Source of the DNA: Thermodesulfobacteriota bacterium
GTDB lineage: Bacteria; Desulfobacterota_D; UBA1144; Nemesobacterales; UBA2774
NCBI GenBank assembly: GCA_041753155.1
Contig: JBGSVA010000028.1
Location: forward strand, 11,960-75,959
Direction of reading: 5' to 3'
DNA length: 64,000 nt
Below are positions 12,373 through 40,723 of the stretch, in pieces (within the stretch, counting starts at the first letter, position 1; each line of letters opens with the position of its first letter). Both the position numbers and the translations under genes were made by a program. The notes beneath the pieces were generated by a model, which saw only the letters and a program-made list of their open reading frames with translations, was not told the origin of the DNA and searched no databases.

Positions 12373-12412
12373 TTAGGATGGGGGTTTTACCCTTCAATCA
12401 TGAATTTAGAAA

Positions 12413-15951: not shown

Positions 15952-16058
15952 TTGAAGACGGCAATGCGGTCATCAAGGCTTATAGGGGATACCCTGACAG
16001 ATTTATTGATAGAATAAGAATAATTCCATATCCCAAAGACTATACATGGAAGACCATA

Positions 16059-18807: not shown

Positions 18808-18822
18808 TTGGCGAGGAGGCGT

Positions 18823-19404: not shown

Positions 19405-19562
19405 AAAGTTGTACCGATGGGAGGAGCAATTGATTTTAGAATCGGACTTGATGTAAGTGAGGTGGCGAAGCTGTACCGAGGACGGAAGTCAGGGGTGCTG
19501 GATCATAAACAACGATGATTATATGTCATATGTACTTACGCATAATCATGCAGGAGATTGTA

Positions 19563-20570
19563 ATGTGTAACAAAATATCATTCTTTATATTTTTCTTTGC
19601 TGCTATGATAGCAGGTTGCGGCGGAGGAGGAGGGACGGTGAACACCTCTCGGGTGTCCCGGCAGGACTTTCAGTCTTCTCAAGAAGTCGGTAATATTAAT
19701 TCCCGTCTTCTTTCACAGCCTATTCCTGCAAATACCTCAGCGCCGGACGGATATCTGATAGGACCTGCCGATTTACTCGAGATAAAGGTTTTCGAGTCTG
19801 AGGAACTGACCAGTACAGTGCGTGTAAGTTCAAAGGGAGAAATCACCCTGCCACTCCTCAATAGTATCTATGTCGACGGGCTCACTGCACGCGATGCAGA
19901 AGTCAAAATCGAAAACCTCCTAAGGGAGGACGAGTATATAGATAACCCTCATGTGGGTGTATTCGTTAAGGAATACAGGAGCAAAGTTGTGTCTGTGATG
20001 GGTTATGTAAATCAGCCTGGGGTCTACGAGTTACTCGATAGGAGAACTTTACTTGATGCTTTAGCATCGGCGAAGGGGTTAAACGACAAAGCGGGAAACT
20101 TGGTTTATGTGACGAGAACCGAAGGCGACGGGAGTAAAGATACTTATCTGGTTGATCTTGATGAACTTATTACCAGCAAAACTCCCGAGAATAATATAGA
20201 ACTCAAACCCGGAGATCTGGTTTTTGTACCGGAAGCAGCGAATGTATTTGTTGAAGGAGCCGTTGACAGACCAGGCGCATATCCTATTACTGAAGGTAAA
20301 ACTACTCTCAGTGAAGTAGTCACAATGGCCGGCGGGGTTTCGAGTGTTGCGGATAAGGGTGATATAAAGCTGATCCGGAATCTCGGCAACGGAGGCAAAG
20401 AGGTGATGGATCTTGATATGAATAGGATACGTAAGGGTGAGGACGAAGACCCTATTCTTAATGGAGAGGATGCAATCGTGGTAGGGGCCAGCTCAATTAA
20501 AAGTTTTATCTACGGCTTTAAAATCAATCTATTTGGTTTCGGTGGGGTTGGCTTCGAACCTCCCAGGTAA
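19563..20570 (+). CDS. Polysaccharide export lipoprotein, Wza/Poly_export family
   Basis: RBS AGGAG. Lipoprotein signal MCNKISFFIFFFAAMIAGC. PES motif GPADLLEIKVFESEELTSTVRVSSKGEITLPLL, followed by SLBB-like repeats. Confidence 0.8.
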   Translation: MCNKISFFIFFFAAMIAGCGGGGGTVNTSRVSRQDFQSSQEVGNINSRLLSQPIPANTSAPDGYLIGPADLLEIKVFESEELTSTVRVSSKGEITLPLLNSIYVDGLTARDAEVKIENLLREDEYIDNPHVGVFVKEYRSKVVSVMGYVNQPGVYELLDRRTLLDALASAKGLNDKAGNLVYVTRTEGDGSKDTYLVDLDELITSKTPENNIELKPGDLVFVPEAANVFVEGAVDRPGAYPITEGKTTLSEVVTMAGGVSSVADKGDIKLIRNLGNGGKEVMDLDMNRIRKGEDEDPILNGEDAIVVGASSIKSFIYGFKINLFGFGGVGFEPPR

Positions 20571-20613
20571 TTTATGGATTTGAGGAGTGAATGAAATGAG
20601 GAGTAATTGAAAT

Positions 20614-22908: not shown

Positions 22909-23140
22909 ATCGAAGATCATAGGATTTTCAAATGTTACAAATATTATCACCGTTTACTGATCTTTGTTTAATTCATAGATAGCTAACCTAGTGAGATCGG
23001 AATGCAGATACGGCAGGGTTTGAAACACTTCTGCAATCATTAACTATTTCCGCTTTTGCAATACCATTTGCTTATTATCCCTTAAATACAAGAAAAAATA
23101 TGATTACAAATCCGGTTATGTTCCGGGATTCCGATTAATC

Positions 23141-24628
23141 ATGAACCTGCTTAATTTAAGAACACAAGAGCAATATACAAAAGTCGGCTTTAACAATCGT
23201 ACTTTGGAAAAGATGCGATGGGTGGAGATCACTCACATGTTGCTTGATATTGTTTTTATTCTTTTAAGCACCTCTGTGGTTTTTGTTATACGGTTTGTGC
23301 CAGGTTTGTATAGCGACGGCCTGCTTGATAACGGCATCCTCTCACTTACCAGATATGAATATTTTACCAATTACATAGGTTTTCTGATTATCTATCTTGT
23401 ACTCGTAATCCTCCTGTTCAATAACTATGACCTCTATTCCACAACTGCCATAAGGTTATGGTTGGACGAGGTATTATTGGTATTTAAATGTATTTCTATG
23501 GGTGCACTGGTGCTCATGGTGGTTTTGTATTTGTCTAAGCAGCAGATTTCGCGTTTCGTCGTAGTTTCAGGTTGGGCCTTAAATATCTTCGCTGTAATAG
23601 GTTGGAGGTATATAAAACACAAAATTGTTGAAAGGAAAATCAAAAATGGCGACGGATTAAGGAGCGTTCTTATCGTAGGCGCCGGAAGGGTTGGAAATAA
23701 GCTCGCCGAAATCCTAGAAAATAATGATCATTTGGGATTAAAGGTAGTAGGCTTTGTGGATGATTACAAAGAAGGCGAAAGTATTTTGGGCAGGGTAAAA
23801 GACATGCCCAGGATTTTACAGAGGCAATTTATTGATGAGGTCTTTGTCACGATACCTTCTGAGAGGGAATTGGTTAAAAGAGTTACAAATCAGGCTTTGA
23901 TTCACAAAGCCGATGTAAAGGTCATACCGGACCTTCTTGACGGCATTGTTTCTCTCAACCGTCCTTTATCTCTGGGATTTTTCGGTGAACTGCCAGTAAT
24001 GGAAATATACCGAAAACCTATTCCCGAGCTCGGTCTATTCCTCAAAGGGTCGATCGATATTTTAATCGGGTTTGCAATGTTAGCGATTACATGTCCGATC
24101 CTTATTGCGGTTGCCATCTTAATTAAAATAGACTCCCGCGACGGGCCTGTTATATACAGTTCGCGACGGGTGGGTAAGAAGGGGAAACTTTTCAATTGCT
24201 ATAAGTTCCGTACGATGTTGGTAAATGCTGATGAGATGAAGCAGGAGCTCAGAGATCTCAACGAGAGAAGCGGGCCGTTTTTCAAAATCAAAGACGATCC
24301 CCGAATAACGAAAGTAGGAAAATTCTTAAGAAAGTACAGCTTGGACGAGCTTCCTCAGATCTTTAATCTCTTGGCGGGAAATATGAGTGTTGTAGGGCCG
24401 AGGCCCCATCCGTTGGATGATTTTAAACTCTACGATATTAAAGATTATAGGAGACTCGATGTAAAACCTGGCATAACGAGTCTATGGGCGGTGGAAGCAA
24501 GGAACGATCCTTCTTTTGAGCGCAATATGGAGCTTGACCTATATTATATTGAGAACTGGGATATCTGGCTTGATCTGAAAATAATATTGAAAACTATTCC
24601 GACCGTGCTTAAAGGCTCAGGTACCTAA
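23141..24628 (+). CDS. Undecaprenyl-phosphate sugar phosphotransferase (WbaP/CpsE-type initiating enzyme)
   Basis: N-terminal TMs plus the bacterial sugar-transferase motif: PVIYSSRRVGKKGKLFNCYKFRTM, SLDELPQIFNLLAGNMSVVGPRPH. Confidence 0.9.
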   Translation: MNLLNLRTQEQYTKVGFNNRTLEKMRWVEITHMLLDIVFILLSTSVVFVIRFVPGLYSDGLLDNGILSLTRYEYFTNYIGFLIIYLVLVILLFNNYDLYSTTAIRLWLDEVLLVFKCISMGALVLMVVLYLSKQQISRFVVVSGWALNIFAVIGWRYIKHKIVERKIKNGDGLRSVLIVGAGRVGNKLAEILENNDHLGLKVVGFVDDYKEGESILGRVKDMPRILQRQFIDEVFVTIPSERELVKRVTNQALIHKADVKVIPDLLDGIVSLNRPLSLGFFGELPVMEIYRKPIPELGLFLKGSIDILIGFAMLAITCPILIAVAILIKIDSRDGPVIYSSRRVGKKGKLFNCYKFRTMLVNADEMKQELRDLNERSGPFFKIKDDPRITKVGKFLRKYSLDELPQIFNLLAGNMSVVGPRPHPLDDFKLYDIKDYRRLDVKPGITSLWAVEARNDPSFERNMELDLYYIENWDIWLDLKIILKTIPTVLKGSGT

Positions 24629-24698
24629 ACAGGCTGTGATTCTATACCTTTAACAGTTTATTTACATTGGCGAATCAACCAAGGGGCTGTCAATTCAA

Positions 24699-26024
24699 TT
24701 GCAGAATCTGATCAAGAAAATCCGTTTTGGCGCAAACAGCAGCGTTGGCAAAAATATCATTTCACTCTATCTATTGCTGGTATCCTACTACGTTCTGCCG
24801 CTCATCACTGTTCCTTATCTTGTGCGCATGTTGGGACCGGAGAAGTTCGGACTTGTGGCTTTCGGCCAGAGCCTGATAACATTTTTCGTGTTATTTGTTA
24901 ACTATGGTTTTGACCTCACAGCAACAAGGCAAATATCGATTAATCGTGAGAGTGATGAACAAGTAAGCCGTATTTCGTGCAGTGTGTGGTTTGCCAAAGC
25001 CCTTTTAGCGTCATTTGGATTCATCGTCCTGATAATATTGATCTTATTTGTTCGGAAAATGAATCAGAATTCCATGCTCTTGTTACTTCTGTTCGGAACT
25101 GCCGTTGGGAATATGCTGTTTCCGAATTGGCTCTTTTTAGGACTCGAGAGGATGAAAGCTATTTCTGTGATTAATATAACAATGCGAGTATTCACAACTT
25201 TGTCGGTATTCATTCTTATTCGAGACCCTGAGGATTACCTGCTCTATGCGGGGCTACTTTCATTTCAATGGATATTTGCAGGCATAAGCGGCGTTTGGTT
25301 CGCAATTGCAAGACTGAAGATTAGAATTACTATTCCGGAAGCACGCAATATTTTTCAGGTGATGTCGGATGGTTGGAGTTTGTTTGTATCGAATATAGCT
25401 CAGAGTATCTACTATTCGGGAAATAGCTTCATTCTGGGTTTTTTAACATCAAATTATTCGGCGGTAGGTTACTACAGCGCAGCTGAAAAAATTGTGCTTT
25501 CACTCGTTGGGTTGTACAGACCGGTAGCTCAGGCAGCTTATCCCTGGTTCTGCAAGATGGCTTCATCATCTAAAAATTCGGTTCTCCTCTGGGGGAAGAG
25601 ATTGATCTATGTTCTGGGGGGGTTGGGTCTTGTGGCATCTTTAACCATTTTTTTTGGTGCCCATATCATAGTCAAGGTAATTCTGGGGCCGGGATACGGT
25701 CCTTCTGTAGCTGTTCTCCAGATTCTGTCGGCGTTACCATTTGTAATTGCGCTCTCCGACGTGCTTAGCAATCAGATAATGCTATCGTTTAGCAAGGACA
25801 GACTTTATGCTCTGATCCGTGTATTTACCGCTCTGTTACACGTTGTGCTTGCTTTATTGCTCGTTCCCAGATTACAAGAAAACGGTATAGCGTTAGTGTT
25901 TATTTTAAGTCAGTCATTCATTCTGGTTTCCACTTTTCTTTTCTTGTGGTATTGGGAACTGACTCCTCTCCATTATAAAATCGACAAGAAGATCCCCCAC
26001 AGTTCCTTTAATTCTGGAAACTGA
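24699..26024 (+). CDS. Wzx-type oligosaccharide flippase (MOP superfamily)
   Basis: Twelve-TM profile: NIISLYLLLVSYYVLPLITVPYLVRMLGPEKFGLVAFGQSL. The in-frame start is TTG at 24699, with no ATG until TM1. Confidence 0.75.
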   Translation: MQNLIKKIRFGANSSVGKNIISLYLLLVSYYVLPLITVPYLVRMLGPEKFGLVAFGQSLITFFVLFVNYGFDLTATRQISINRESDEQVSRISCSVWFAKALLASFGFIVLIILILFVRKMNQNSMLLLLLFGTAVGNMLFPNWLFLGLERMKAISVINITMRVFTTLSVFILIRDPEDYLLYAGLLSFQWIFAGISGVWFAIARLKIRITIPEARNIFQVMSDGWSLFVSNIAQSIYYSGNSFILGFLTSNYSAVGYYSAAEKIVLSLVGLYRPVAQAAYPWFCKMASSSKNSVLLWGKRLIYVLGGLGLVASLTIFFGAHIIVKVILGPGYGPSVAVLQILSALPFVIALSDVLSNQIMLSFSKDRLYALIRVFTALLHVVLALLLVPRLQENGIALVFILSQSFILVSTFLFLWYWELTPLHYKIDKKIPHSSFNSGN

Positions 26025-26136
26025 CCTTTAAACAGCTATGTAGTGATACAGGTATAAGAGCGCATGTTATAAAAAGCTTACTGTCATAAAACGCTGAGAA
26101 TGAATTAAATCGAGCGTGATAGAGGAGGGTATTGAA

Positions 26137-26328
26137 ATGAAGACAATCAGAACAAATGATAAATGTGAGACATGCGGCGGATTCCTGACATTTGAAGTCA
26201 GGGATGAATACACTGATGACAGGAACACTGTAACGAGTACAGGTGTATGGAAATGCACTCTGTGTGAAAGAGCGACAGTGGGACTCGTGGTGAGAAGCCT
26301 CGTTATCAAAGTGGCAGTCGGAAGTTAG
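26137..26328 (+). CDS. Small zinc-ribbon protein (63 aa; CxxC...CxxC)
   Basis: Strong RBS GAGGAGGG 9 nt upstream. MKTIRTNDKCETCGG...VWKCTLCERATV. It lies between wzx and a GT4 gene. Confidence 0.45.
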   Translation: MKTIRTNDKCETCGGFLTFEVRDEYTDDRNTVTSTGVWKCTLCERATVGLVVRSLVIKVAVGS

Positions 26329-26385
26329 TCAATCATTCTGTTACACCCGTTGGTTCCTTTAAAATATGCCCTTAGGATAAACATC

Positions 26386-27648
26386 ATGCATATCATTTTA
26401 GTAGAGCCGTTCGCACATAGAGTAGGCCATTATGGTGATTTAAGCTGCCGTTTAGCCTGTGGTCTTTCAAAAAATTCAGTCCCAGTAACTGCTGTGACTT
26501 TCCAGGGTTTCCTAGTCGGATGTGTGTCCGAATTGGATAAAACAAAATTTAAACACATGGATTTTATTTCGAATTCTCCCTCGATTCTAGTTTTAACAGT
26601 TAAAGCGATTATTAGTTTTTTACAGTTCATCAGCAATACTGTACAGCTCATCAGTAATACACAGATTATAGTCCGAATAATACACATTTTGGAAACGTTC
26701 CTTACGTTAAAGTTTGCAGAAAGGTTAAATAAAGACGAAAATTCCACTCTCATGTTCTGTTACGACGGAGAACTTATAGGATTTTTAACCTACGCTTTAT
26801 ACTGCAGCCATAAGAAATTAGTCTATAAAATCATGGACTATTCGAGAACTTTTCCTGAAAAGAGACTCAAACTGAAAATCAAAAGATATATTGAGAATCG
26901 ACTATGCAGGAAAGCATTGGAAAGAAACAAATTGGTATTTATATGTAATACGTTACAGTTGCTCCAGGGATATATGAAAACAGGATTTCCCGGAGAGTGT
27001 GTTTATACGACTCCACTCGGGATTGTAGAACGGAGAGAGAAATTGGAAAAGTCCAAGGCCAGAAGCTTTCTGAAACTACCTATGGATGATGTTTTGCTCC
27101 TTGTTTTTGGTGTAGGTCACGGCGGCAAGAATTTTGATACAATTCTAAAAGCCAATCAAGGCGGAAACAGTGGGTGCCGAATAATATTTGCAGGCAAGAT
27201 TTTACCCTCCTGTACCAACCACCCCCGGCAACTGGCGAAGAAATATAACTGTGAAAAGAACGTGATAATCTTAGATGAGTTTATTCCTTCACATAAAGTC
27301 CCATACTATTTCTCTGCGGCTGATGGCTTGCTCCTTTCGTATAAAAAGGATTTCGTTGTGGACAGCGGTGTTTTGTTACAAGGAGTAGGATTTGACTTGC
27401 CTGTCATAGCAAGTAATTCCGGTTGGATCGGTCAAATTGTCAGGGAAAACGAGCTTGGTATTACGTTTACTCCGGAGAATAGTTCATCTTTAAGATCGGC
27501 AATGACCGAATTTATTGACTTGGGTGAAAGCAGCCGGTACAGGATGGTTAAAAATGTAACAAAATGTGCCGAAAGCTTATCCAGGAGTAATGTAGTTGAG
27601 GAATATATCAACTTATTCAAAAAAACAATCGGGGTCTCAACTTTATGA
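26386..27648 (+). CDS. Glycosyltransferase family 4
   Basis: GT-B C-terminal domain: LLLVFGVGHGGKNFD...FSAADGLLLSYK...LLQGVGFDLPVIASNSGWIGQIV. The probable start is MHIILVEPF; the track ORF begins 36 nt earlier. Confidence 0.65.
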   Translation: MHIILVEPFAHRVGHYGDLSCRLACGLSKNSVPVTAVTFQGFLVGCVSELDKTKFKHMDFISNSPSILVLTVKAIISFLQFISNTVQLISNTQIIVRIIHILETFLTLKFAERLNKDENSTLMFCYDGELIGFLTYALYCSHKKLVYKIMDYSRTFPEKRLKLKIKRYIENRLCRKALERNKLVFICNTLQLLQGYMKTGFPGECVYTTPLGIVERREKLEKSKARSFLKLPMDDVLLLVFGVGHGGKNFDTILKANQGGNSGCRIIFAGKILPSCTNHPRQLAKKYNCEKNVIILDEFIPSHKVPYYFSAADGLLLSYKKDFVVDSGVLLQGVGFDLPVIASNSGWIGQIVRENELGITFTPENSSSLRSAMTEFIDLGESSRYRMVKNVTKCAESLSRSNVVEEYINLFKKTIGVSTL

Positions 27649-28865
27649 AGAGACAAGAATCTTTAACCGGCACGAAAGTGGCATGGCTCATCCCCTCGAT
27701 GGCAAGGAATTTTTTTCACTGGCTGCCATTAATTGAGGAATTTTCTAATATTTTTCCGGACACTACTGTTTTTACGGGTCTTTGTCCCGAGGATATTTCC
27801 AGCGAAACAGTGTCGTTTAACCTCAAGATTGTTGGGAAAACAAGGTTCATCAAACTAGGAAAGAAAGAATCGCGTTACGAGAAGGTCATTATAGTTCCAC
27901 CGCTGGACATTCCGTTTCATCTGTTAAAATTCCTTCCGCAAGTTATTTTAACGTATGGGTTTTCAATATGGACGGTTATTGTGTTACTCCTTAAACCATT
28001 TACCGGGTGGCGGGTAATTGTTGTTTATGAAGGCAGCACTCCAACTGTAGATGACAGGGAATCAAAGTTACGTACATTCGGACGTAAGTTAATGACCACG
28101 GGATCTGATGCGTTCCTGACAAATACTCACTCCGGCAAGTCATACCTTGTTGAATTTCTGAAAGCGAATAAAGAACTTGTATTCGTACGTCCCTATTTGC
28201 TTCCGGACATTAAATATCTGACTCAAAAGGAAGTGGATGTGAAAAAACTGCTCGTGGATGCGCCGCGACCTGTTTTTCTTTACGTCGGATTAATAATTCA
28301 GCGCAAGGGTCTTAAATTCCTCATAGAAGCCTTCGCTGCATTAAAAAGAAAAGGATACGATGAATACACCCTCGTGATCGTGGGGGACGGCCCGCAGCGT
28401 GGAGAGCTTGAGGACATAGTCAAAAAACGAGAAATCGAAAAGCAGGTGAGATGGATGGGCTGGTTTGATTATAATAGCCTAGGATATTTCTATAATTCAT
28501 CGGATATATTCGTATTCCCGACTTATGAAGACACATGGGGCTTGGTTGTGCTTGAAGCAATGGCATTTGCAAAACCTGTCTTGTGTTCTAAGCTGGCAGG
28601 AGCTCAGGAAATGATCCAAGAAGGAGAGAACGGCTATACTTTTAATCCCGATTGTGATACGCCTGACGCTCTAGCCGAAATTATTAAAAGATTTATTGAT
28701 AACCCGGACATTATACGCCCTATGGGAGAGAAGTCAAAAATACTGGTCTCGTCTCACACTCCCAGAGCTGTTGCTGATTATCTGAAATGTATTATCGAGT
28801 TCGCTTTGGGGTTGAGGGACAGAAGCTCCGGGAAATTTGCCGAATACCCTCAAAAACAACATTAA
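27645..28865 (+). CDS. Glycosyltransferase family 4
   Basis: FLYVGLIIQRKGLKFLIEAF...VFPTYEDTWGLVVLEAMAFAKPVLCSKLAGAQEMIQEGENGYTF. The start overlaps the upstream stop (ATGA). Confidence 0.85.
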   Translation: MKRQESLTGTKVAWLIPSMARNFFHWLPLIEEFSNIFPDTTVFTGLCPEDISSETVSFNLKIVGKTRFIKLGKKESRYEKVIIVPPLDIPFHLLKFLPQVILTYGFSIWTVIVLLLKPFTGWRVIVVYEGSTPTVDDRESKLRTFGRKLMTTGSDAFLTNTHSGKSYLVEFLKANKELVFVRPYLLPDIKYLTQKEVDVKKLLVDAPRPVFLYVGLIIQRKGLKFLIEAFAALKRKGYDEYTLVIVGDGPQRGELEDIVKKREIEKQVRWMGWFDYNSLGYFYNSSDIFVFPTYEDTWGLVVLEAMAFAKPVLCSKLAGAQEMIQEGENGYTFNPDCDTPDALAEIIKRFIDNPDIIRPMGEKSKILVSSHTPRAVADYLKCIIEFALGLRDRSSGKFAEYPQKQH

Positions 28866-28929: not shown

Positions 28930-31470
28930 ATGAACATGTATCAGGAATTCGGAAGAGCTTTAAAAGAAACCGAATATACGATCCTTCACGGATGGCAATC
29001 TTTGCCCGATTATCACAAATCCGATCTCGATATAGCTATCAACCCTCGGCATCTAAAAATACTGGAAAAGTCGCTTTTGGGTTTTGAATCCGCCAGACTG
29101 GTGCAAATGCTTCAGCACGAATCTACCTGTTTCCATTTTATATTGGCTGCCAAAAACGGAAAAGGAATAAAATATCTGCAAATCGATGCGGCTACGGACT
29201 ACAGGAGAAACGGGCTGATTTATTTTTCCTCGGAAGAGTTAACCCGGGCCAGACAGAAATGGAAGGGATTCTGGGTGTCTTCCCCTGAGATGGAATTGGC
29301 TTATCTGCTCGTTAAGAAAACACTTAAAGGTGAAACACCGGAACACCAAAAGAAAAGACTCGAATACTTGATAGGGGAGCTAGGTGAGATGAGTTCTACT
29401 ATGATATCAACAGAGCTCTTTGGGAATGAGTTCGGACCGATAGTAATTTCCTGGATATATAAGGAAAATTGGAGTGTCCTGGAATCGAATGTACCCAAAT
29501 TGAAAAGAGCGCTGATGATGGAGACCGTAAAAAAGGACCCCTTAAATCCTTTCAAATACTGGATTAATGAAGCAAATCGCATCCTGAGAAGGTGGCTTAA
29601 TCCAACCGGATTGTTTATAGCGGTACTTGGTCCGGACGGGGTGGGGAAAAGCACCTTAATTAAAAGATTGGAACATGAGCTATCGGTTGCGTTCCGACGT
29701 ACGGAGAACTTCCATCTGAGACCCGGGGTGTTAGGCAAGAAACCAGAGGGCGAACCTGTGACCGACCCTCATGGAAAGCCTACTCGTTCTTATTTGCTCT
29801 CGACTCTAAAGATCCTGTATTACTTCACTGATTACACTTTGGGTTATCTATTCAAAATCTATCCTAAAATCATAAGATCGACCATGGTTATTTCTGACAG
29901 ATATTGCGATGACTTACTGGTTGATCCAGTCCGTTATAGGTATGGAGGATCATTCTGGTTCGTTAAACTCATGTGTTATTTTATCCCCAGGCCCCGTTTA
30001 TATTTGGTGTTGGATATTCCCGCGGACAAGATTCTGAAGCGTAAGCAGGAGGTTGGAGAAGAGGAATTGATTCGTCAGCGAAAGGCATATATGGACCTGG
30101 CGGTAAGGCTCCCTAATGCTTTTATTCTGGATTCCGGAGGGACCCCGGAAAAGGTGGCGGATGATGCTTCGGAAATCATAACGAATTATCTGCACAACAG
30201 ATATATGGAGCGGAGCGGGTCATTTTTCCCGAATAATGACAAAATGAATACTCTTGCCTGGCTGACTTCCGTACTGTCAGCCAACCCCCGTGGATCTTTT
30301 TTCACCATCAAGGGTGCTGGAAACAGAGATAAGAGTTTGGTTTGGGAAACTACTTACGAATTCAAATATTTACCGGTCAAGGACGGCCGCGCATATTTAC
30401 TACCCCTGAAACGGAAACCGGCCGAAAACGGTCTTTTGCTTTATAACGCACAGAGTGAAAAAGCAAAAGCGGTAAAAGCCCTTCTGAAGAAACGTTACAT
30501 CATCGGTTTAAGCAGTCTTTTGTTGAATTCAGTAAGTGTTATGACAAGCCGTAGTTTAAATATCCGTGAGAAGAGCGAGGTATTGATCTTTGAATATTTA
30601 AAGGAAGTAATGAATCTGGGAGAGCTCGATTTCGCACTCTCTCTAGGTACTCCGGGACCCCATCGAAAACCTGTTATACAAATCAATAACGGGGAGGGTA
30701 TAGTTGTCGGTTATGTCAAGGTCGGGTGGAATGAGGTTACAAATTCGCTTGTAAGAAATGAAGCTGATACAATCAAAAAACTGTCCTGCACATCTTTTAA
30801 TTCCTTCGGAATGCCTTCCGTTTTACATGCAGGTTGGTGGCATGATCGATACTTTACAATACTATCCTCACCTGAGGGCCATCTCTTACCAGCATCTAAA
30901 ACGCTGAATATTATGTACATGAATGTCATAAATGATTTAGCGGACTTCAATACACGGAGTATGCTCGTCCGGGAGAGCGATTTCTGGGCGGTTCTATTAA
31001 ACAGAGTGAATAAAGTTAAGAACGGGTACTTTCGCTCTGTTTTGAAGCAAAAAGGTATACCGCGAATAGAGAAGGCATTAAACAATATATCGCTCCCGTT
31101 TCATATGTCCCACGGGGACTTTGCTCCCTGGAACACATATACCGGGAACGACAAGATCTTTCTCTATGACTGGGAATATGCACGTCCGTACGTGCCTGCG
31201 GGCTATGATTTATTTCATTATATTTTCCAGACTAATGTTTTTCTCGAAAAAAGAAATTCCGATGAGCTGTATAGAGCTGTATTGAGCGATAGTCTTAACA
31301 GTTTAACGAAAAAGTATTGGGAGAAACTCGGAGTAAGTACGGACTCCCGGAATACGCTTTTCCTCTTATATTTACTGGATAGATTTTCGATTGCTGCTTC
31401 GGAAGGGGCCGGGAGTTTTCAAGAGCTGAATCAATTTTCCAAGATAATTATGCTGTTAACCGATATTTAA
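28930..31470 (+). CDS. Three-domain fusion enzyme: N-terminal LicD/MNT-like nucleotidyltransferase-fold domain, central P-loop (thymidylate-kinase-like) kinase domain, C-terminal APH/choline-kinase-like phosphotransferase domain
   Basis: N-terminus: YTILHGWQSLPDYHKSDLDIAIN (G...[SD]DxDxhh NTase signature). Central: IAVLGPDGVGKSTLIKRL (Walker A), MVISDRYCDDL (Walker B with DRY, as in dTMP kinase), LID KRKQEVGEEELIRQRKAY. C-terminus: HMSHGDFAPWN and LYDWEYA (APH/ChoK Brenner and DFG-like motifs). Start taken at MNMYQ, after the overlap with the upstream gene. Confidence 0.6.
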   Translation: MNMYQEFGRALKETEYTILHGWQSLPDYHKSDLDIAINPRHLKILEKSLLGFESARLVQMLQHESTCFHFILAAKNGKGIKYLQIDAATDYRRNGLIYFSSEELTRARQKWKGFWVSSPEMELAYLLVKKTLKGETPEHQKKRLEYLIGELGEMSSTMISTELFGNEFGPIVISWIYKENWSVLESNVPKLKRALMMETVKKDPLNPFKYWINEANRILRRWLNPTGLFIAVLGPDGVGKSTLIKRLEHELSVAFRRTENFHLRPGVLGKKPEGEPVTDPHGKPTRSYLLSTLKILYYFTDYTLGYLFKIYPKIIRSTMVISDRYCDDLLVDPVRYRYGGSFWFVKLMCYFIPRPRLYLVLDIPADKILKRKQEVGEEELIRQRKAYMDLAVRLPNAFILDSGGTPEKVADDASEIITNYLHNRYMERSGSFFPNNDKMNTLAWLTSVLSANPRGSFFTIKGAGNRDKSLVWETTYEFKYLPVKDGRAYLLPLKRKPAENGLLLYNAQSEKAKAVKALLKKRYIIGLSSLLLNSVSVMTSRSLNIREKSEVLIFEYLKEVMNLGELDFALSLGTPGPHRKPVIQINNGEGIVVGYVKVGWNEVTNSLVRNEADTIKKLSCTSFNSFGMPSVLHAGWWHDRYFTILSSPEGHLLPASKTLNIMYMNVINDLADFNTRSMLVRESDFWAVLLNRVNKVKNGYFRSVLKQKGIPRIEKALNNISLPFHMSHGDFAPWNTYTGNDKIFLYDWEYARPYVPAGYDLFHYIFQTNVFLEKRNSDELYRAVLSDSLNSLTKKYWEKLGVSTDSRNTLFLLYLLDRFSIAASEGAGSFQELNQFSKIIMLLTDI

Positions 31471-31484: not shown

Positions 31485-32717
31485 ATGCAAAAAAGACTTA
31501 AGGTATTGATTTCCGCCTATGCTTGTGAGTCCGGAAAAGGCTCTGAGCCCGGAATAGGATGGAATTGGGTAAAACAAATCGGCCGATTCCATGACGTGTG
31601 GGTTATTACACGGTCGACCAACCGGGTATCTATTGAGCGGGAAAGCCCCTATATGCCACCAAATATCCACTGGTTATATTTTGATTTTCCCGGATGGGCC
31701 AGGTTTTGGAAGAAAGGCCAGCGCGGAGTTTATTTATATTATTACTTATGGCAAATAGCGGTTTATTTTCTGGCAAGACGGATACATAAGGGAGTTAATT
31801 TCGACATAATCCATCATTTAACATTCGGTGTTTATTGGCTTCCGAGCTTTCTATCACTTCTCCCTGCACCTTTTATATACGGTCCTCTGGGCGGCGCCGA
31901 ATCGGCACCTAAGGAGTTTTACAGTAGCTTCAGTCTCAGGGGTAAGATTTATGAATGGTTGAGAAATACGGCAAGATGGATCGGTGAGAAAGACCCTTTC
32001 GTGCTGATAAGTATCAGGAGAGCAAGGTTAGTTTTGGCGAGAGTGAGGGATACGGGTGAACGACTCTCTTTTCTCGGAGCAAAAGATGTGCGTTATTGCT
32101 CGGACTTTGGAATCAGCGTTGAGGAGATTGAAAGACTGGGTGCGATAAACGGCAAGAGACCCGAGCAGCTCGTGGTGATAAGTGTCGGCAGACTGCTGCA
32201 TTGGAAAGGCTTTCATCTGGGACTCAAGGCCTTTTCCAGGTTTGTGACCGAATTTCCCTCTAGTGAATACTGGTTTGTGGGGGACGGACCGGAGCGGCGA
32301 AATTTAGAATTAATGGCGGAAGGGTTGCACATAGCGGATAAAGTAAAGTTTTATGGCGTGCTTACTCGGCACGAGGTCTTAAAAAGGCTTTCTGAATCCG
32401 AAATGTTAGTTCATCCGAGCCTTCATGACTCTGGTGGTTGGGTATGTATTGAAGCAATGGCTTTAGGGAAGCCCGTGTTATGCCTTGATCTGGGGGGACC
32501 TGCAATGCAGGTATCCCGGGAGACGGGATTTAAGCTCCCGGCTGGCACTCCTGAACAATCTGTCGACGACCTGACGAATGCGATGAAACAACTGGCAGGG
32601 GATTTCAGCCTGGGCAGGAGAATGGGCGAAGCCGCACGGAAAAGGGCTTTGGACTATTTTGAATGGGATAAAAAGGGCGAATGGATAAACAAAATCTATC
32701 AGGAAGTGGCAGTTTAA
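31485..32717 (+). CDS. Glycosyltransferase family 4
   Basis: MQKRLKVLISAYACESGKGSEPGIGWNW...VHPSLHDSGGWVCIEAMALGKPVLCLDLGGPAMQV. Confidence 0.8.
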   Translation: MQKRLKVLISAYACESGKGSEPGIGWNWVKQIGRFHDVWVITRSTNRVSIERESPYMPPNIHWLYFDFPGWARFWKKGQRGVYLYYYLWQIAVYFLARRIHKGVNFDIIHHLTFGVYWLPSFLSLLPAPFIYGPLGGAESAPKEFYSSFSLRGKIYEWLRNTARWIGEKDPFVLISIRRARLVLARVRDTGERLSFLGAKDVRYCSDFGISVEEIERLGAINGKRPEQLVVISVGRLLHWKGFHLGLKAFSRFVTEFPSSEYWFVGDGPERRNLELMAEGLHIADKVKFYGVLTRHEVLKRLSESEMLVHPSLHDSGGWVCIEAMALGKPVLCLDLGGPAMQVSRETGFKLPAGTPEQSVDDLTNAMKQLAGDFSLGRRMGEAARKRALDYFEWDKKGEWINKIYQEVAV

Positions 32718-32718: not shown

Positions 32719-34197
32719 ATGAATTGGGCAAGTAAATATCCTGAAATCAAGCCTGCAATTATTGTGGCCGGCGCATCAGTCCTGATTGGCTTTTTTGCCT
32801 TGGAGATATCGAATCGGTTCGATTACTATATGGTTCTAATCTGTGTTTTGGGAGTTCCAACGGGCTTTCTTGTCTTAAGGTCTATATTTATTTCAAGCTT
32901 CAGATTAAAGGAATTGTTCGTACGGCTTAAATGGTGTCATTACCTTTGGTTTTTAGTTTTCATGAGCGGACTCGTTTTTCGTATAAGAGATACGGATACA
33001 GTTCAACAAAACCCGTTAGATCTCTGGGCTCTTTATAGGATAGGTGTAATGGGGTTCATAGGCTATGTGCTGCTCATGAGGCTGGCTATGCATAAAACGG
33101 ACTGGTTATCTTCTCTGTTCAGGGGTTCTGTAGGACTATTCGCAGGATTTGCGCTGGTTGCTCTGCTTTCCACCGCGTGGTCTGTCTATCCCATGTGGAC
33201 ACTTTATAAGTCCCTTGAATACATAATCAGTCTGTCCCTTATCGCTGCAATAATATTCTCGGCAAAATCAATACCTGATTTCAAGGTGCTTTTCGACTTG
33301 ACCTGGGTATTGTTAGGCCTGCTCGCGGCCAGCGCCTGGATCGGGATTTTAATATGGCCTGATATTGCAATGCGCAGGGATGTTGGAGTTCTGGGGAGTC
33401 AGCTTTCTGGAGTAATTCCTGCGATGGAAACTAATCAAGTGGGAGAGCTGGGCGCAATACTGTGTATTGTAGCGTTCAACCGCATTCTGTTCATGAAAGA
33501 CAAAAGATTATATTTCGTAATCTTTCTTGCAGCTATGGCTACATTGATAATCGCGCAGAGCAGAACACCTATTGCGGGTTTTCTCGTGGCTGTACCTCTG
33601 ATGCTGTTTGCTTCCAGAAGAATCGGCCCTTTTGCTTTCACAATTATGCTGATGTTCTTGGTGCTCAACTTTACCGGTATAACGGATACGTTCTGGGAAT
33701 ATTTTCAGCGTGGACAGGATCGGGAGCATTTTTCATCTTTTTCGGGAAGGACCTACGGTTGGGCTTTGGGGTGGGAACTCTTTAAGGCCAATCCTTTGGT
33801 AGGTTACGGTGCGTATGCCGGAGGAAGATTTGTGGTGCTGACTGAGCTGGGGGGAGTGGGAGATTGGTCTTCAATCCTAAATACATGGCTGGAAATTCTT
33901 CTTGGAGTGGGATTGATAGGTGCTATTTTTACAGTAGCAGCTTTTCTGAGGACATGGAAAAATCTTTTGGAGGCTACGTTTTCGAGCAGGAACGGAACGC
34001 TGCTTCATTGTTTAGCTGTGGAAGGTGTGGGCATACTTGCCCTTATCTCTGTACGTTCAATGTTTACAACCAATATATTTTGGCATCCTCCTTTGCTTTT
34101 CTTCCTTGTTCTGGGGTATACAGAATTTTTATACAGGCATTACAAGTGCGTAAACTTCAGAAAACCTTTTCTTAGAAAATCGTTAATGACTAACTGA
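32719..34197 (+). CDS. Wzy-type polymerase / O-antigen ligase family membrane protein
   Basis: At least ten TM segments with a large periplasmic loop containing the Wzy_C-like block LIIAQSRTPIAGFLVAVPLMLF. It sits among GTs next to wzx. Confidence 0.7.
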   Translation: MNWASKYPEIKPAIIVAGASVLIGFFALEISNRFDYYMVLICVLGVPTGFLVLRSIFISSFRLKELFVRLKWCHYLWFLVFMSGLVFRIRDTDTVQQNPLDLWALYRIGVMGFIGYVLLMRLAMHKTDWLSSLFRGSVGLFAGFALVALLSTAWSVYPMWTLYKSLEYIISLSLIAAIIFSAKSIPDFKVLFDLTWVLLGLLAASAWIGILIWPDIAMRRDVGVLGSQLSGVIPAMETNQVGELGAILCIVAFNRILFMKDKRLYFVIFLAAMATLIIAQSRTPIAGFLVAVPLMLFASRRIGPFAFTIMLMFLVLNFTGITDTFWEYFQRGQDREHFSSFSGRTYGWALGWELFKANPLVGYGAYAGGRFVVLTELGGVGDWSSILNTWLEILLGVGLIGAIFTVAAFLRTWKNLLEATFSSRNGTLLHCLAVEGVGILALISVRSMFTTNIFWHPPLLFFLVLGYTEFLYRHYKCVNFRKPFLRKSLMTN

Positions 34198-34556
34198 GAA
34201 TATAGCCGGTATCCACACAGTATTAATAATCCTTGAGAAAATCATCACTGAAATATGTTTCAGAACCGAGAGGAGATCACGTCCATAGAAAAAGCAAATT
34301 GACAACAGTATCAATGGTTCATGCTTTGAACATGGGAATGGAATGTCCTTATTGCAAATGTGATGCGTCGGAGTTAGAACGGATATATTTGGTGTAAAAC
34401 CATTCGGGAATCAGGGACTCATGGGTAGGGGATACAAGATACGGAAGAGGTTAAGATGGTATATATGGTACGCCGAACTAATCTTCACAATTTACTAGGG
34501 TAAATACTGCAAACAGCCGATATCGAGGGTGAACTCCTTTATTTCACCAGAAAATC

Positions 34557-35744
34557 ATGAGAGTGCTTGTCGCACATAACTATTATCAGCAGCCGGGTGG
34601 TGAGGATACGGTATTCGCTGCCGAAACGGAGCTTCTCCGGAGGTATGGTCATGAGGTTGTCGAGTACACGGAAAGGAATGAGAGAATCAATTCCATGAAT
34701 ATCGGTACTGTGGCTCTGAAAATGATATGGTCTCTTAGCTCGAAAAAAAAAATAATTGAAATACTCGACAGGACAAAACCCGATGTCGCGCACTTCCATA
34801 ATACATTTTTACTCATATCACCATCTGCGTATTATGCGTGTAAAGATAGGAATGTGCCCGTAATACAATCACTTCACAATCCGAGACTTCTTTGTCCGGC
34901 GGCAAATCTTTATCGTGACGGTAAGGTGTGTGAAGACTGTGTGGGTAAAACATTACCTTGGCCTGGGGTGGTGCACGGCTGTTACCGGCACTCAAGGTCT
35001 CAAACAGCACTCGTCGCAACAATGCTGACACTACACCGGATGCTCGGGACCTGGGACCGGGTTATTGATACTTTTATCGTATTCACTGAGTTTTACAGGA
35101 AAAAATTCATAGAGGGGGGACTCCCTCCGGAGAAAATTGCTCTTAAGCCACACTTCGTTGATCCCGACCCGGGTTGTCGTAACGGGCGGAAAGGGGAATA
35201 CGCACTCTACATCGGAAGGCTCGACAGGGAAAAGGGTATTAATACTTTACTCAAGGCATGGCGGCACAATACTAACGTCCCGCTGAAGATCAGAGGGGAC
35301 GGGAATCTATTAGGCGAGGTCGCCGAATATATAAACAGAAACAACCTGAAATCGGTAGAGATTGTAAGACGTCTCAAGAGGGCGGAGCTCAATGAGTTAA
35401 TCAAAAATGCACGGTTCCTTGTTTGGCCGTCGGAAGGGTATTACGAAACGTTCGGGTTAGTGGCAATCGAATCATTTGCGTGCGGTGTACCGGTAATCGC
35501 TTCAAGGGCAGGGGCATTGGCGGAGAATGTTAGAGACGGGTATACAGGACTTCATTTTACGCCGGGTGATACAGATGATTTATCAGCGAAGGTGAATTGG
35601 GCATGGAATCACCCGGAGGAAATGGCCCTTATGGGGAGGGCCGCCCGAAGAGAGTATGAAACGAATTACAGCTCTGAAAAAAATTACAGGATACTCCTCG
35701 GAATATACGAAAAGGCTATAAGTGAGAAAAAGGTCCGGCATTAA
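34557..35744 (+). CDS. Glycosyltransferase family 4
   Basis: MRVLVAHNYYQQPGGEDTV...LYIGRLDREKGINTLL...VWPSEGYYETFGLVAIESFACGVPVIASRAGALAENV. Confidence 0.85.
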   Translation: MRVLVAHNYYQQPGGEDTVFAAETELLRRYGHEVVEYTERNERINSMNIGTVALKMIWSLSSKKKIIEILDRTKPDVAHFHNTFLLISPSAYYACKDRNVPVIQSLHNPRLLCPAANLYRDGKVCEDCVGKTLPWPGVVHGCYRHSRSQTALVATMLTLHRMLGTWDRVIDTFIVFTEFYRKKFIEGGLPPEKIALKPHFVDPDPGCRNGRKGEYALYIGRLDREKGINTLLKAWRHNTNVPLKIRGDGNLLGEVAEYINRNNLKSVEIVRRLKRAELNELIKNARFLVWPSEGYYETFGLVAIESFACGVPVIASRAGALAENVRDGYTGLHFTPGDTDDLSAKVNWAWNHPEEMALMGRAARREYETNYSSEKNYRILLGIYEKAISEKKVRH

Positions 35745-35836: not shown

Positions 35837-36610
35837 ATGATGATCGTGAATAATTGGGACAGATACAGGATACTCGGGGTCAACGTATCAGCCGTTCAGA
35901 TAGGTGATGTAATCCGTCAGATGGACGAATGGATTGAAGAGAGGAGCTTCGGACATTATATAGCGGTAACCAATACCCATGTTATAACGGAGTCCTGGTT
36001 CAACCCGGAATATAAAAAGGTTCTTAATACCGCAGATTTTGTGGTTCCTGACGGGATGCCGCTCGTGTGGCTTGGAAGGTTAGGGGGGTATTCGCTCAAA
36101 CGCAGGGTTTATGGTCCGGAATTGATGGAAAGCTTCTTATTGGATAAAAAAGGGCGTAAACGCAGACACTTCCTGTATGGGGGCAAGCCCGGTGTTCCCG
36201 AGAGACTTATGGAAAACCTATCGGGGAGTTGTCCCGACTTAGAGTTCGTCGGAAGTTATTCGCCTCCTTTCCGCCCGCTTACATCAGAAGAGGACAGGGC
36301 GGTGGTCGATAGGGTAAATAGTCTGGGACCGGATGTTGTCTGGGTAGGACTGGGAGCGCCGAAGCAGGAGATATGGATGCACGAGCATAGGCATAGCCTC
36401 CGTGTGCCGCTTATGGTGGGTGTAGGGGCGGCATTCGATTTCCTCGCCGGCGTTAAATCTCAGGCCCCTTCGCTACTAAGGGAAAACGGGTTTGAGTGGT
36501 TATGGCGCTTGATGAGTGAACCGCAGCGTTTATGGCGCAGATATCTGCTCTACGGACCGCTCTTTGTCGGTTTGGTAATGCTCGAGAAGATGAAAATATT
36601 AAAGTTCTAA
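35837..36610 (+). CDS. WecB/TagA/CpsF-family glycosyltransferase (GT26)
   Basis: ILGVNVSAV...HYIAVTNTHVITES...ADFVVPDGMPLVWLGRLGG...VWVGLGAPKQEIWM. Confidence 0.8.
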   Translation: MMIVNNWDRYRILGVNVSAVQIGDVIRQMDEWIEERSFGHYIAVTNTHVITESWFNPEYKKVLNTADFVVPDGMPLVWLGRLGGYSLKRRVYGPELMESFLLDKKGRKRRHFLYGGKPGVPERLMENLSGSCPDLEFVGSYSPPFRPLTSEEDRAVVDRVNSLGPDVVWVGLGAPKQEIWMHEHRHSLRVPLMVGVGAAFDFLAGVKSQAPSLLRENGFEWLWRLMSEPQRLWRRYLLYGPLFVGLVMLEKMKILKF

Positions 36611-39658: not shown

Positions 39659-39659
39659 C

Positions 39660-40718: not shown

Positions 40719-40723
40719 TAAAG

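Follow-up and report, generated by a model that had tools for sequence, protein, structure and literature searches.

A nucleotidyltransferase, P-loop kinase and APH-like kinase fused in one protein of a Wzx/Wzy-type polysaccharide cluster

In a 64,000-nucleotide stretch of Thermodesulfobacteriota DNA (the window), one gene of a Wzx/Wzy-type polysaccharide cluster encodes a single genuine polypeptide with three catalytic domains: a Pol-beta-fold nucleotidyltransferase (NT), a dTMP-kinase-like P-loop kinase (PK) and an APH/choline-kinase-like kinase. These are the folds that an earlier note on this DNA had assigned, and judging by the alignments all three domains keep their catalytic residues. 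Comparison of 84 loci from more than ten phyla reveals that the unit of NT and PK is near-constant (81 of 84), and that the tri-domain protein joins two genes, [NT-PK] and [APH-like], in Rosetta-stone fashion. The features are located in Table 1.

Table 1. Positions of the tri-domain gene, its domains and the neighbouring cluster genes in the window
Feature	Position	Strand	Remarks
Upstream part of Wzx/Wzy cluster	19515..28865	+	Wza 19515, Wzc 20614, initiating phosphoglycosyl transferase (PGT) 23141, Wzx 24699, GT4 26350, GT4 27645
NT-PK-APH tri-domain protein gene	28930..31470	+	complete ORF, 846 aa + stop; ATG 28930, stop 31468-31470
NT domain, Pol-beta superfamily, helical C-terminal half	28930..29604	+	residues 1-225
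PK domain, derived from dTMP kinase	29605..30225	+	residues 226-432
Alpha/beta N-terminal extension of APH-like protein	30226..30609	+	residues 433-560; LINK HMM and secondary structure
APH/choline-ethanolamine-kinase-fold kinase domain	30610..31467	+	residues 561-846
GT4 glycosyltransferase (GT4a), distinct GT4 subfamily, steadiest module neighbour	31485..32717	+	58-59/84 loci
Wzy-like polymerase (Wzy_C) of conserved cassette	32719..34197	+
Second cassette GT4 (GT4b)	34557..35744	+	48-49/84 loci
WecG/TagA/CpsF-family glycosyltransferase of cassette	35837..36610	+	46-47/84 loci

The reading frame and its homologues

The open reading frame is intact, and its product is 846 residues long rather than 847, a length that had been reached by including the stop codon in the count. 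The longest possible reading, from a TTG at 28837, would overlap the upstream GT4 gene, whose end is at 28865; homologues start at the position of the ATG at 28930 (P0001, for example, has 846 residues and 91% identity), and this ATG is preceded by a GAGG at a distance of 11 nt. Could the frame nevertheless be a mis-joined assembly of separate genes? Among 8000 candidates scored 477 are homologues, and the best 120 of these 477 are nearly all full length, with E-values down to 0. The same fusion, which the earlier note had proposed to seek in other genomes, is found at 15 genome loci independent of one another, and over 100 proteins that span the full length come from different assemblies. With full-length homologues so plentiful, the 846-residue frame is no mis-join. 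The protein has zero predicted transmembrane segments and is predicted to be soluble. The full-length AF2 model (pLDDT 89.4, pTM 0.87) suggests that the three domains form a compact assembly, which likewise argues against an artefact.

Conserved motifs and fold relationships of the three domains

All motifs quoted in the earlier note are present: the NT motif GWQSLPDYHKSDLDIAI at residues 21-37; Walker A GPDGVGKST at 234-242 (nt 29629-29655), DRY at 323-325 (nt 29896-29904) and the LID RKQE at 371-374; and HGDFAPWN at 728-735 with DWEY at 747-750. In 50 homologues with identities of 38-91%, the residues of these motifs vary little or not at all. Invariant in the family alignments are D32/D34/D86, the P-loop G-x-D-G-x-G-K-S-T, D323-R324-Y325 and K597/E611/D730/N735/D747.

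The NT domain shows the alpha/beta NTase core fold of the Pol-beta superfamily, whose hG[GS]-x9-13-Dh[DE]h motif and third carboxylate are found here, the motif as L-H-G21-W22-x9-D32-L-D34-I. Since G-S is replaced by a nearly invariant G-W, motif I is present in a variant form. Conserved residues comprise H20-G21-W22, D32-x-D34 (nt 29023-29031), D86 (nt 29185-29187), D90/Y91/R92 and, in helix 119-133, E122/Y125/K129/K133. No variation is seen at D32, D34 or D86 among 28 sequences, and from its spacing and strand position D86 is probably the third carboxylate. The earlier note had described the signature of the domain as Pol-beta/MNT/LicD-type. PF04991 is unmatched at E<=0.05 in 50 full-length members and at E<=1 in 28 N-terminal domains, and LicD and FKRP are absent among the fold matches; we reject a LicD/fukutin/FKRP identity on Pfam and fold rank. 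NTP_transf_5 (PF14907) is matched by one of the 28 N-terminal domains (E 1.6e-4) and one of the 50 full-length members (E 0.0054), the window protein itself being unmatched, and the NT sequence profile finds nothing meaningful in the PDB.

By fold comparison the closest structures are MenT, JHP933, ANT(2'') and LnuA. Identity between the NT domain and ANT(2'')-Ia, LnuA, MenT or JHP933 (DUF1814) is 11-12% and their Pfam families are unmatched; the NT domain differs from them in its G-W for G-S in motif I and in lacking toxin-antitoxin or resistance surroundings. The DUF1814/AbiEii/MenT family has four motifs, of which the C-terminal III and IV are family-specific (PMC7450476). The window protein does not show this set of four motifs, III and IV included, with a cognate antitoxin gene. 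A MenT/AbiEii-like toxin or an anti-phage defence gene is about as implausible as the assembly artefact: AbiEii Pfam matches are absent from the 50 full-length members and the 28 N-terminal domains, the PADLOC match is limited to a P-loop fragment, and an antitoxin-like partner gene is absent from surroundings devoted to EPS synthesis. We give these readings next to no credence and regard them as effectively refuted.

The PK domain retains the dTMP kinase (TMK) hallmarks of a P-loop with Asp, DRY and LID (G234-P-D236-G-V-G-K240-S-T, D323-R324-Y325 and R371-K372, invariant or nearly so); its P-loop Asp and DRY align with LDGSGKTT and DRY of Thermus thermophilus TMK, and its structure is nearer to TMK than to APS kinase. 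PF02223 is matched by all 50 homologues at E<=0.05 (best 1.7e-10). Also invariant are D328/D332/R335-Y336-R337 and the LID R371-K372-x-E374, together with H262, P280 and H281 of a family-specific Pro/Gly-rich loop (residues 262-290). Should the gene then be taken at face value, as a housekeeping thymidylate kinase or an aminoglycoside-resistance phosphotransferase or nucleotidyltransferase? Databases do name members of the family "thymidylate kinase", "dTMP kinase, partial", "phosphotransferase" or "hypothetical", and ANT(2'') and APHs are among the structural neighbours. However, the window protein falls below the cut-offs of PF02223 (24.1 bits versus 27) and TIGR00041 (23 bits versus 83.25), and PK, unlike Tmk, carries the 25-residue Pro/Gly-rich insert with its invariant His residues and is near-constantly fused to an NTase within EPS clusters of more than ten phyla. 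Resistance-gene surroundings are absent. The thymine/dTMP-recognition residues (an F..R segment, and AYQG beyond DRY) also seem not to be conserved: when PK is aligned by HMM with TMK of T. thermophilus, LLFSADR stands against ILYYFTD and AYQG against VDPV, in a stretch of low confidence. Given this apparent replacement of AYQG by VDPxR, the acceptor of PK may be non-nucleotide. The face-value annotation is accordingly very hard to sustain.

Between PK and the third domain, residues 433-560 are not a mere linker, as the extension, some 125 residues long, is conserved and travels with the kinase in separate APH-like genes; the LINK HMM matches stand-alone APH-like ORFs in L019, L020, L021, L026, L034, L049 and L065. 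The fusion junction lies at about residue 432/433. The kinase domain has a bilobal protein-kinase-like fold with the ChoK-type motif HGDxxxxN...DWEY...DLFH, and conserves K580, K597, E611, H728-G-D730-x4-N735 (nt 31111-31134), D747-W-E749-Y (nt 31168-31179) and D760/H763. Of these, the catalytic residues K597, E611, H728-G-D730-F-A-P-W-N735 and D747-W-E749 show little or no variation; from their secondary-structure position, K597 and E611 probably form the Lys-Glu pair. The window protein scores 13 bits against the APH Pfam cut-off of 23.2. Among the homologues 23/50 match APH (best 8.1e-11) and 13/50 Choline_kinase (best 2.2e-5), and the family profile matches pneumococcal LicA (E 5.8e-6). 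Fold neighbours of the domain act on amino alcohols, sugars, antibiotics, steroids and proteins. A second APH-like ORF of the window (42074..43219) is no paralogue of this domain, having only the DWE motif in common with it (BLASTP E 0.38); relatives of that ORF were not found in the PDB.

A conserved cassette with alternative fusion partners

The window cluster runs in the order Wza, Wzc, PGT, Wzx, two GT4, the tri-domain gene, GT4, Wzy, GT4 and WecG; besides the Wzc tyrosine kinase it also encodes a two-component system. Over the 84 loci the conserved cassette consists of Wzx, NT-PK, APH, GT4a, Wzy, GT4b and WecG. In the 81 loci with an NT-PK ORF, the APH-like kinase is fused in 15 (one in permuted order), encoded by an adjacent gene in 37 and found at some other place within the locus in 9. 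Another 12 loci, whose flanks are long enough to judge, have NT-PK and no APH-like gene. Thus the view that one enzyme unites all three domains is true of the window protein, but the fusion is lineage-specific and the APH-like kinase is mostly a separate neighbouring gene. NT-PK is also joined to a Wzx-like protein of 11-12 transmembrane segments (P0152, P0155, L066, L082, L083) and to a hexapeptide O-acetyltransferase, a tailoring enzyme (L041, L042, L056, L057). All-against-all ORF clustering of the 84 loci finds as recurrent only glycosyltransferases, Wzx-like proteins, Wzy, Wzc/Wza, PGT and NAD-dependent epimerases. An NAD-dependent epimerase/dehydratase is thereby the sole further recurrent soluble enzyme of the cassette beyond glycosyltransferases and assembly proteins, and this clustering found no conserved enzyme of cytidylyltransferase type. 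Methyltransferase genes lie near the module in L001, L002 and L004.

Among cassettes studied experimentally, the Myxococcus xanthus EPS Wzx/Wzy pathway (EpsZ, EpsH-Wzy, EpsA, EpsY, EpsV) comes nearest when judged by the best NCBIfam matches. The matches, all below cut-off, pair GT4a with EPS_EpsH, WecG with EPS_EpsA and Wza with EpsY, and EpsH and Wzy are adjacent in M. xanthus as they are in the cassette here (PMC7484181). The eps locus is not a characterised equivalent, as NT-PK and APH-like genes are absent from its gene list, the hypothetical MXAN_7447 left aside. As the earlier note had supposed, no characterised enzyme of the tri-domain architecture was found in Pfam, NCBIfam, the PDB or the literature, and a full-text search found no paper describing an NT-PK(-APH) family.

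Possible roles in polysaccharide tailoring

What does the module do? We tentatively favor, at somewhat less than even confidence, a cytoplasmic, membrane-proximal module that adds a phosphate-linked substituent to the lipid-linked repeat unit. It would act at the cytoplasmic membrane face, on the undecaprenyl-diphosphate-linked repeat unit, before flipping. The APH/ChoK-like kinase would phosphorylate a small alcohol or a sugar hydroxyl and the NT domain would carry out the transfer step at the glycan. The fused TMK-like domain would act on the nucleotide part, most simply by converting NMP to NDP, a role suggested by its retention of the TMK-specific P-loop Asp and DRY. Other NTase-fold glycan modifiers use NDP-X donors and release NMP. 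LicD-family enzymes of this fold take a phospho-alcohol or a sugar phosphate from an NDP conjugate and attach it to a glycan (PMC2794190, PMC11666461). That the APH-like kinase is fused in 15, adjacent in 37 and elsewhere within the locus in 9 of the 81 loci suggests functional coupling, and the Wzx-like and O-acetyltransferase fusions point to a link with the membrane and with the glycan. The lack of predicted transmembrane segments fits the proposed location. Against this model, neither sequence nor fold rank identifies the NT domain as LicD, and the cassette is without a conserved cytidylyltransferase-type enzyme that would make NDP-X from the kinase product. The nearest NT structures nucleotidylylate hydroxyls using NTPs. 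Because 12 loci carry NT-PK without an APH-like gene, the three activities need not form one linear pathway. Activation and transfer of a phospho-substituent, as the earlier note had envisaged, would be compatible with the data.

Known systems resemble the tailoring module in part. The LicA/LicC/LicD phosphocholine pathway of Streptococcus pneumoniae and Haemophilus influenzae differs in its transferase, the NT domain here matching neither PF04991 nor the LicD/FKRP fold; it has no counterpart to the fused TMK-like domain, and its LicC-type cytidylyltransferase and choline permease are not conserved in the cassette. WbdD of E. coli O9a is a kinase-methyltransferase chain terminator, and WaaP and KdkA are glycan kinases. 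Like the APH-like domain these have a protein-kinase-like fold, and they phosphorylate a glycan hydroxyl at the cytoplasmic side; WbdD moreover unites several domains, and with them a second tailoring activity, in one protein. WbdD, however, works in O-antigen systems that depend on an ABC transporter and has neither an NTase nor a P-loop kinase; sequence similarity was not detected.

Alternatively, the three domains may make a nucleotide-activated donor in solution, to be used by GT4a or another transferase: the kinase would yield X-P, the NTase NDP-X, and PK would either provide the nucleotide or attach a further phosphate, for instance at the 3'-OH as in PAPS. Such a logic operates in the C. 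jejuni O-methyl phosphoramidate (MeOPN) pathway, where Cj1418 is a kinase, Cj1416 a cytidylyltransferase and Cj1415 a P-loop 3'-kinase, comparable to PAPS synthase, and in the bifunctional HldE and Fkp. All three catalytic domains would then serve one linear route, GT4a is directly downstream as the steadiest neighbour, and the methyltransferase genes recurring in the cassette (the three loci named above) recall the MeOPN pathway, in which a kinase, a nucleotidyltransferase and a P-loop kinase likewise serve capsule decoration, often with methyltransferase genes close by. Yet the folds differ at each step of the MeOPN pathway (Cj1418 lacks the APH fold, Cj1416 resembles GlmU and Cj1415 resembles APS kinase), no sequence relationship was found to these enzymes, and two or three activities are fused here. 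HldE and Fkp share with the module a kinase-nucleotidyltransferase fusion serving polysaccharide synthesis, but their folds are others (the kinase is of PfkB or GHMP type, the NTase resembles cytidylyltransferases or GlmU), and their products are nucleotide sugars. We know of no Pol-beta-fold enzyme that makes NDP-sugars or NDP-alcohols, PK resembles TMK more than APS kinase, the Wzx-like membrane-protein fusions favor action at the membrane over action in solution, and 12 loci carry NT-PK without APH. Donor synthesis in solution is therefore a possibility that we find doubtful.

The NT domain could instead transfer NMP from NTP directly to a sugar hydroxyl of the repeat unit, with the chemistry of ANT(2'') and LnuA on antibiotics, giving a nucleotide-decorated polysaccharide, with both kinases remodelling or preparing the modified site. 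All three carboxylates of the DxD...D triad are retained, and binding of a nucleoside-monophosphate moiety would come naturally to a TMK-like domain. We regard this as improbable: to our knowledge there is no nucleotidylated bacterial exopolysaccharide, an NMP kinase cannot phosphorylate the phosphate of a phosphodiester-linked NMP, and the hG[GS] motif is here the variant H-G-W. More broadly, the module may install an undescribed EPS decoration, an NMP/NDP or pyrophosphate-linked group on the lipid-linked repeat unit, or make a PAPS-like 3'-phospho-NDP-X donor, which we consider unlikely.

Lastly, the NTase and/or the kinases may nucleotidylylate or phosphorylate the assembly proteins (Wzx, Wzy, Wzc, glycosyltransferases) and not the glycan. 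MenT-type NTases auto-phosphorylate (PMC11375011), which offers a precedent. The Wzx fusions would fit regulation of the flippase equally well. The C-terminal motifs are, on the other hand, of the small-molecule ChoK/APH type, the O-acetyltransferase fusion places NT-PK among tailoring enzymes, and the cluster already has its tyrosine kinase and two-component system. We know of no TMK-derived domain acting as a protein kinase, and a regulatory role has, in our estimate, little likelihood.

Tailoring of polysaccharides sets the charge and antigenicity of the bacterial surface, its recognition by phages and the immune system, and its material properties. Clustered at 50% identity, NT domains give about 2,170 representatives, and the family occurs in at least a dozen phyla, among them Acidobacteriota, Bacteroidota, Pseudomonadota, Planctomycetota, Verrucomicrobiota, Chloroflexota and Cyanobacteriota. 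A family mis-annotated as thymidylate kinase and tied to one conserved Wzx/Wzy cassette thus points to a widespread, uncharacterised modification of sugar polymers. The near-constant NT-PK unit, with the APH-like kinase, the Wzx-like flippase and the O-acetyltransferase as alternative fusion partners, provides a testable hypothesis, and several cultured carriers exist (Devosia elaeis S37, Thalassotalea litorea, Flavivirga jejuensis, Larkinella bovis and Inmirania thermothiophila). If its chemistry is new, the module would represent a novel type of glycan-tailoring reaction and new roles for the Pol-beta fold and TMK-like kinases. Were either the undescribed decoration or the PAPS-like donor real, a conserved EPS of more than ten phyla would bear a previously unrecognised chemical signature, produced by a transferase of the Pol-beta fold in concert with a kinase derived from TMK.

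The reading frame and its domains

The longest mechanical call of the target ORF begins at a TTG (28837) and thereby overlaps the preceding GT4 gene (end at 28865); the ATG, which has a GAGG 11 nt on its 5' side, is the start shared by homologues. The encoded protein lacks a hydrophobic segment and is therefore cytoplasmic. In a collection of 5.8 billion proteins we find 477 homologues among 8000 candidates scored. The best 120 of the 477, nearly all 780-890 aa long with query coverage >90% and identities of 38-91%, occur in independently assembled genomes of Thermodesulfobacteriota, Tectomicrobia, Chloroflexi and Binataceae and in the isolate Inmirania thermothiophila; source records name homologues 'thymidylate kinase', 'phosphotransferase', 'dTMP kinase, partial' or 'hypothetical protein'. 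Thus the fusion, which the earlier note proposed to look for in other genomes, is present full-length in independent assemblies, and as it also recurs across loci, mis-assembly of separate genes is effectively excluded.

Coordinates of the target ORF, of motifs in its product and of further features of the window
Feature	Position	Strand	Remarks
Target ORF	28930..31470	+	one reading frame, 846 codons + stop
NT motif GWQSLPDYHKSDLDIAI	residues 21-37		target protein
P-loop motif GPDGVGKST	residues 234-242		target protein
DRY	residues 323-325		target protein
HGDFAPWN	residues 728-735		target protein
DWEY	residues 747-750		target protein
NusG-family paralogue	18808-19404	+	directly upstream of wza
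Second, stand-alone APH-family ORF	42074-43219	+	381 aa; PF01636 E 2e-8
354-aa ORF	43284-44348		after second APH ORF; no Pfam match
Alkaline-phosphatase-family protein	44366-45964		after 354-aa ORF

Sequence methods by themselves are weak for this protein. Alone, it yields sub-threshold Pfam scores for Thymidylate_kin (24.1 vs 27 bits) and APH (13 vs 23.2 bits), no Pfam match in residues 1-225, and only a sub-threshold dTMP kinase match in NCBIfam. Over 50 homologues, Pfam detects Thymidylate_kin in all 50, APH in 23 (best 8e-11), Choline_kinase in 13 and NTP_transf_5 in one, and the family profile matches PDB entries of thymidylate kinases (E 2e-8) and of the pneumococcal choline kinase LicA (E 5.8e-6). 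These matches bear out the P-loop kinase (PK) and APH-like kinase domains described in the earlier note, whose quoted motifs all lie at the expected positions. The same note gave the first domain, here the nucleotidyltransferase (NT), a Pol-beta/MNT/LicD-type signature. A profile search found no sequence relatives of NT among solved structures; a separate predicted model of residues 1-226 (pLDDT 93.8) matches Pol-beta-superfamily nucleotidyltransferases, and Foldseek concurs (JHP933, E 1.6e-5). LicD, FKRP and fukutin are absent from both fold-match lists, and PF04991 was never matched in Pfam searches of 50 full-length homologues and 28 N-terminal domains. The fold named in the note is thus correct, whereas its specific 'LicD-type' label lacks support.

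The module is compact and soluble, and each of its three domains conserves its catalytic residues. Over 50 sequences, the invariant or nearly invariant positions are H20, W22, D32, D34, D86, D90, Y91, R92, E122, Y125, K129 and K133 in NT; G234, D236, G237, G239, K240, S241, T242, H262, P280, H281, D323, R324, Y325, D328, D332, R335, Y336, R337, R371, K372 and E374 in PK; and K580, K597, E611, H728, G729, D730, N735, D747, E749, D760 and H763 in the APH-like kinase. Judged by these residues, all three domains look catalytically competent. PK retains two features typical of dTMP kinase (TMK), the P-loop Asp (GPDGxGKST, aligned with LDGSGKTT of TMK) and DRY, which in TMK structures contact the 3'-OH and phosphate of the acceptor nucleotide, and its VDPV aligns, at low confidence, with the thymine-recognising AYQG. 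This combination suggests an acceptor that is probably nucleotide-like but other than dTMP. A thymidylate kinase at face value is effectively excluded by the sub-threshold family scores and the fused, cassette setting, as are a resistance enzyme and, PADLOC being negative, a MenT-like toxin. The C-terminal motif HGDFAPWN...DWEY...YDLFHY is closer to the choline-kinase/LicA type than to APH(3'), going by the motifs of those kinases and the LicA profile match.

Gene neighbourhoods of the module

The comparison of gene neighbourhoods is the most informative result of our analysis. Four distant homologues (Inmirania, a Deltaproteobacteria MAG, a Chloroflexi MAG and one further MAG) share the order fusion, GT4 (~411 aa), Wzy-like (~490 aa), optional methyltransferase, GT4 (~390 aa) and WecG (~257 aa). 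When one genome was scanned for each GTDB species, at least 248 relatives were confirmed and 80 loci returned, spread over Acidobacteriota, Bacteroidota, Alpha-, Beta- and Gammaproteobacteria, Planctomycetota, Verrucomicrobiota, Chloroflexota, Cyanobacteriota, Actinomycetota, Spirochaetota, Nitrospirota, Bacillota, Omnitrophota and others. HMMs of residues 1-222 (NT), 223-432 (PK), 433-560 (LINK) and 561-846 (APH) and of window neighbour genes were run against every ORF of 84 loci. NT and PK share one ORF in 81, the other three being truncated or frameshifted. The APH-like part is fused to NT-PK in 15 of the 81 (once permuted, APH-NT-PK), separate and directly downstream in 33 (two convergent), directly upstream in four (Methylotenera and others), elsewhere in the locus in nine, absent although flanks reach at least 2.5 kb on both sides in 12, and not assignable at contig ends in eight. 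LINK accompanies the stand-alone APH-like gene and is thus the N-terminal extension of that protein, placing the fusion junction at about residue 432/433. An exhaustive search of 1.84 billion representatives with the NT HMM gave 2174 clusters with E<=1e-3, 1156 of them with E<=1e-10, in two main length classes, ~430-480 and ~810-890 aa; the family is therefore large, with NT-PK its near-constant unit. The permuted ORF (locus L072, 9842-13076), preceded by a PK-only ORF, arose either by a separate fusion or by a duplication with a frameshift; a Terriglobia MAG carries a tandem pair of NT-PK genes (L060, 9827-12754).

NT-PK is tightly coupled genetically with the APH-like kinase and with GT4a, the first cassette glycosyltransferase (window 31485), which recurs in 59 of the 84 loci; the second, GT4b, recurs in 48, WecG in 46, PGT in 45 and Wzc in 51. 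Few further recurrent families emerged from all-against-all clustering: NAD-dependent epimerases and a Wzx-like 11-12-TM protein, which is present in 37 loci and often encoded immediately upstream of NT-PK. This Wzx-like (MOP-family) protein is, in several Acidobacteriota and Planctomycetota, physically coupled to the module, in frame with NT-PK with or without APH, at the N-terminus (proteins P0152, 1312 aa, and P0155, 1356 aa; loci L011, 8297-12496, L044 and L079) or the C-terminus (L066, L082, L083), the end varying with lineage. In Burkholderiales/Pelomicrobium-type MAGs (L041, L042, L056, L057) NT-PK carries a C-terminal hexapeptide-repeat acetyltransferase (e.g. L042, 9881-11752), within a different Wzx/Wzy cluster (GDP-mannose dehydratase, pyruvyl transferase, Wzy, DUF748/AsmA protein); these four loci lack an APH-like gene. 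The fusion partners of NT-PK, kinase, acetyltransferase and flippase, are thus tailoring and membrane-export functions. Wzx/Wzy clusters are the exclusive setting of the module. A regulatory role, in which it would modify proteins, is very unlikely.

The rest of the polysaccharide region

A Methyltransf_23 SAM methyltransferase lies between Wzy and GT4b in three loci (L002, L004, L005) and directly after the fusion in Inmirania (L001). The 360-bp Wzy-GT4b gap of the window (34197-34557) holds no ORF of at least 150 aa; the window has therefore apparently lost the methyltransferase. The NusG paralogue, preceded by a PAS/GAF histidine kinase and a LuxR-type response regulator (15238-18150), resembles an RfaH/LoaP-like antiterminator dedicated to the EPS operon; a ~218-aa family occupies its position in 18 of the 84 loci (e.g. 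L002, 491-1072; L005). The second APH-family protein shares only the DWE motif with the target C-terminal domain (BLASTP E 0.38), which rules it out as a relative, and has no sequence relatives in PDB. With this protein and the alkaline-phosphatase-family protein nearby, the cluster may carry a second phosphate-related tailoring step.

At 38882-41956 and 52488-56386 lie an NDP-hexose branch (NTP_transferase, epimerase/dehydratase, C-methyltransferase with Methyltransf_13/14 domains), then two more Methyltransf_23+Methyltransf_14 proteins and a small SAM methyltransferase; C- or O-methylated deoxy sugars are probable constituents of the polymer. Downstream of the cluster (46097-52288 and 57196-61555) are encoded an FG-GAP repeat protein, three paralogous GDSL-like acylhydrolases, a PKD-domain protein and a beta-helix/fn3 protein whose N-terminal domain is of the purple-acid-phosphatase type; these may be secreted polymer modifiers or degraders. 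G+C is 0.51-0.60 over window 1-14000 (TPR protein, HisRS, GT4, two DUF3943 proteins) and 0.38-0.50 across the polysaccharide region (14000-64000), the region being either an island acquired horizontally or an instance of the low G+C frequent in surface-polysaccharide loci.

Glycan tailoring as the proposed function

We infer that the module adds a phosphate-containing group to the Und-PP-linked repeat unit at the cytoplasmic face. Tentatively, and at somewhat less than even chances, we favor a division of labor in three steps: the ChoK/APH-like kinase would phosphorylate an alcohol or sugar hydroxyl, NT would carry out transfer at the glycan, and the TMK-derived domain would convert a nucleotide by-product or intermediate, in the simplest case NMP to NDP. 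For NTase-fold glycan modifiers (LicD, FKRP, MNN4) the donors are NDP conjugates and NMP is set free (PMC2794190, PMC11666461), and conversion of such a by-product by PK would explain why an NMP-kinase-like domain is welded to an NTase-fold transferase. Against this, NT is distinct from LicD, with NTP-using enzymes as its closest structures; the cassettes of the 84 clustered loci conserve no cytidylyltransferase-type step; and NT-PK also occurs without an APH-like gene. A soluble donor-synthesis route, in which a kinase, the NTase and a second kinase act in turn, has precedents in the C. jejuni O-methyl phosphoramidate pathway, PAPS synthesis and HldE/Fkp, and we consider it rather unlikely; direct O-nucleotidylylation of the glycan by NT, as by ANT(2''), is very unlikely.

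The earlier note's view that the architecture is not characterized holds: no Pfam, NCBIfam or PADLOC model covers NT-PK-APH, and full-text literature searches returned nothing on it. In the closest studied cassette, that of M. xanthus EPS, the module is absent from the listed genes. The chemistry itself has a small chance of being new. The folds are ordinary; what has no earlier description is how they are combined, and that this combination keeps its place in an EPS cassette from phylum to phylum. We class NT-PK-APH as a putative glycan-tailoring enzyme module.
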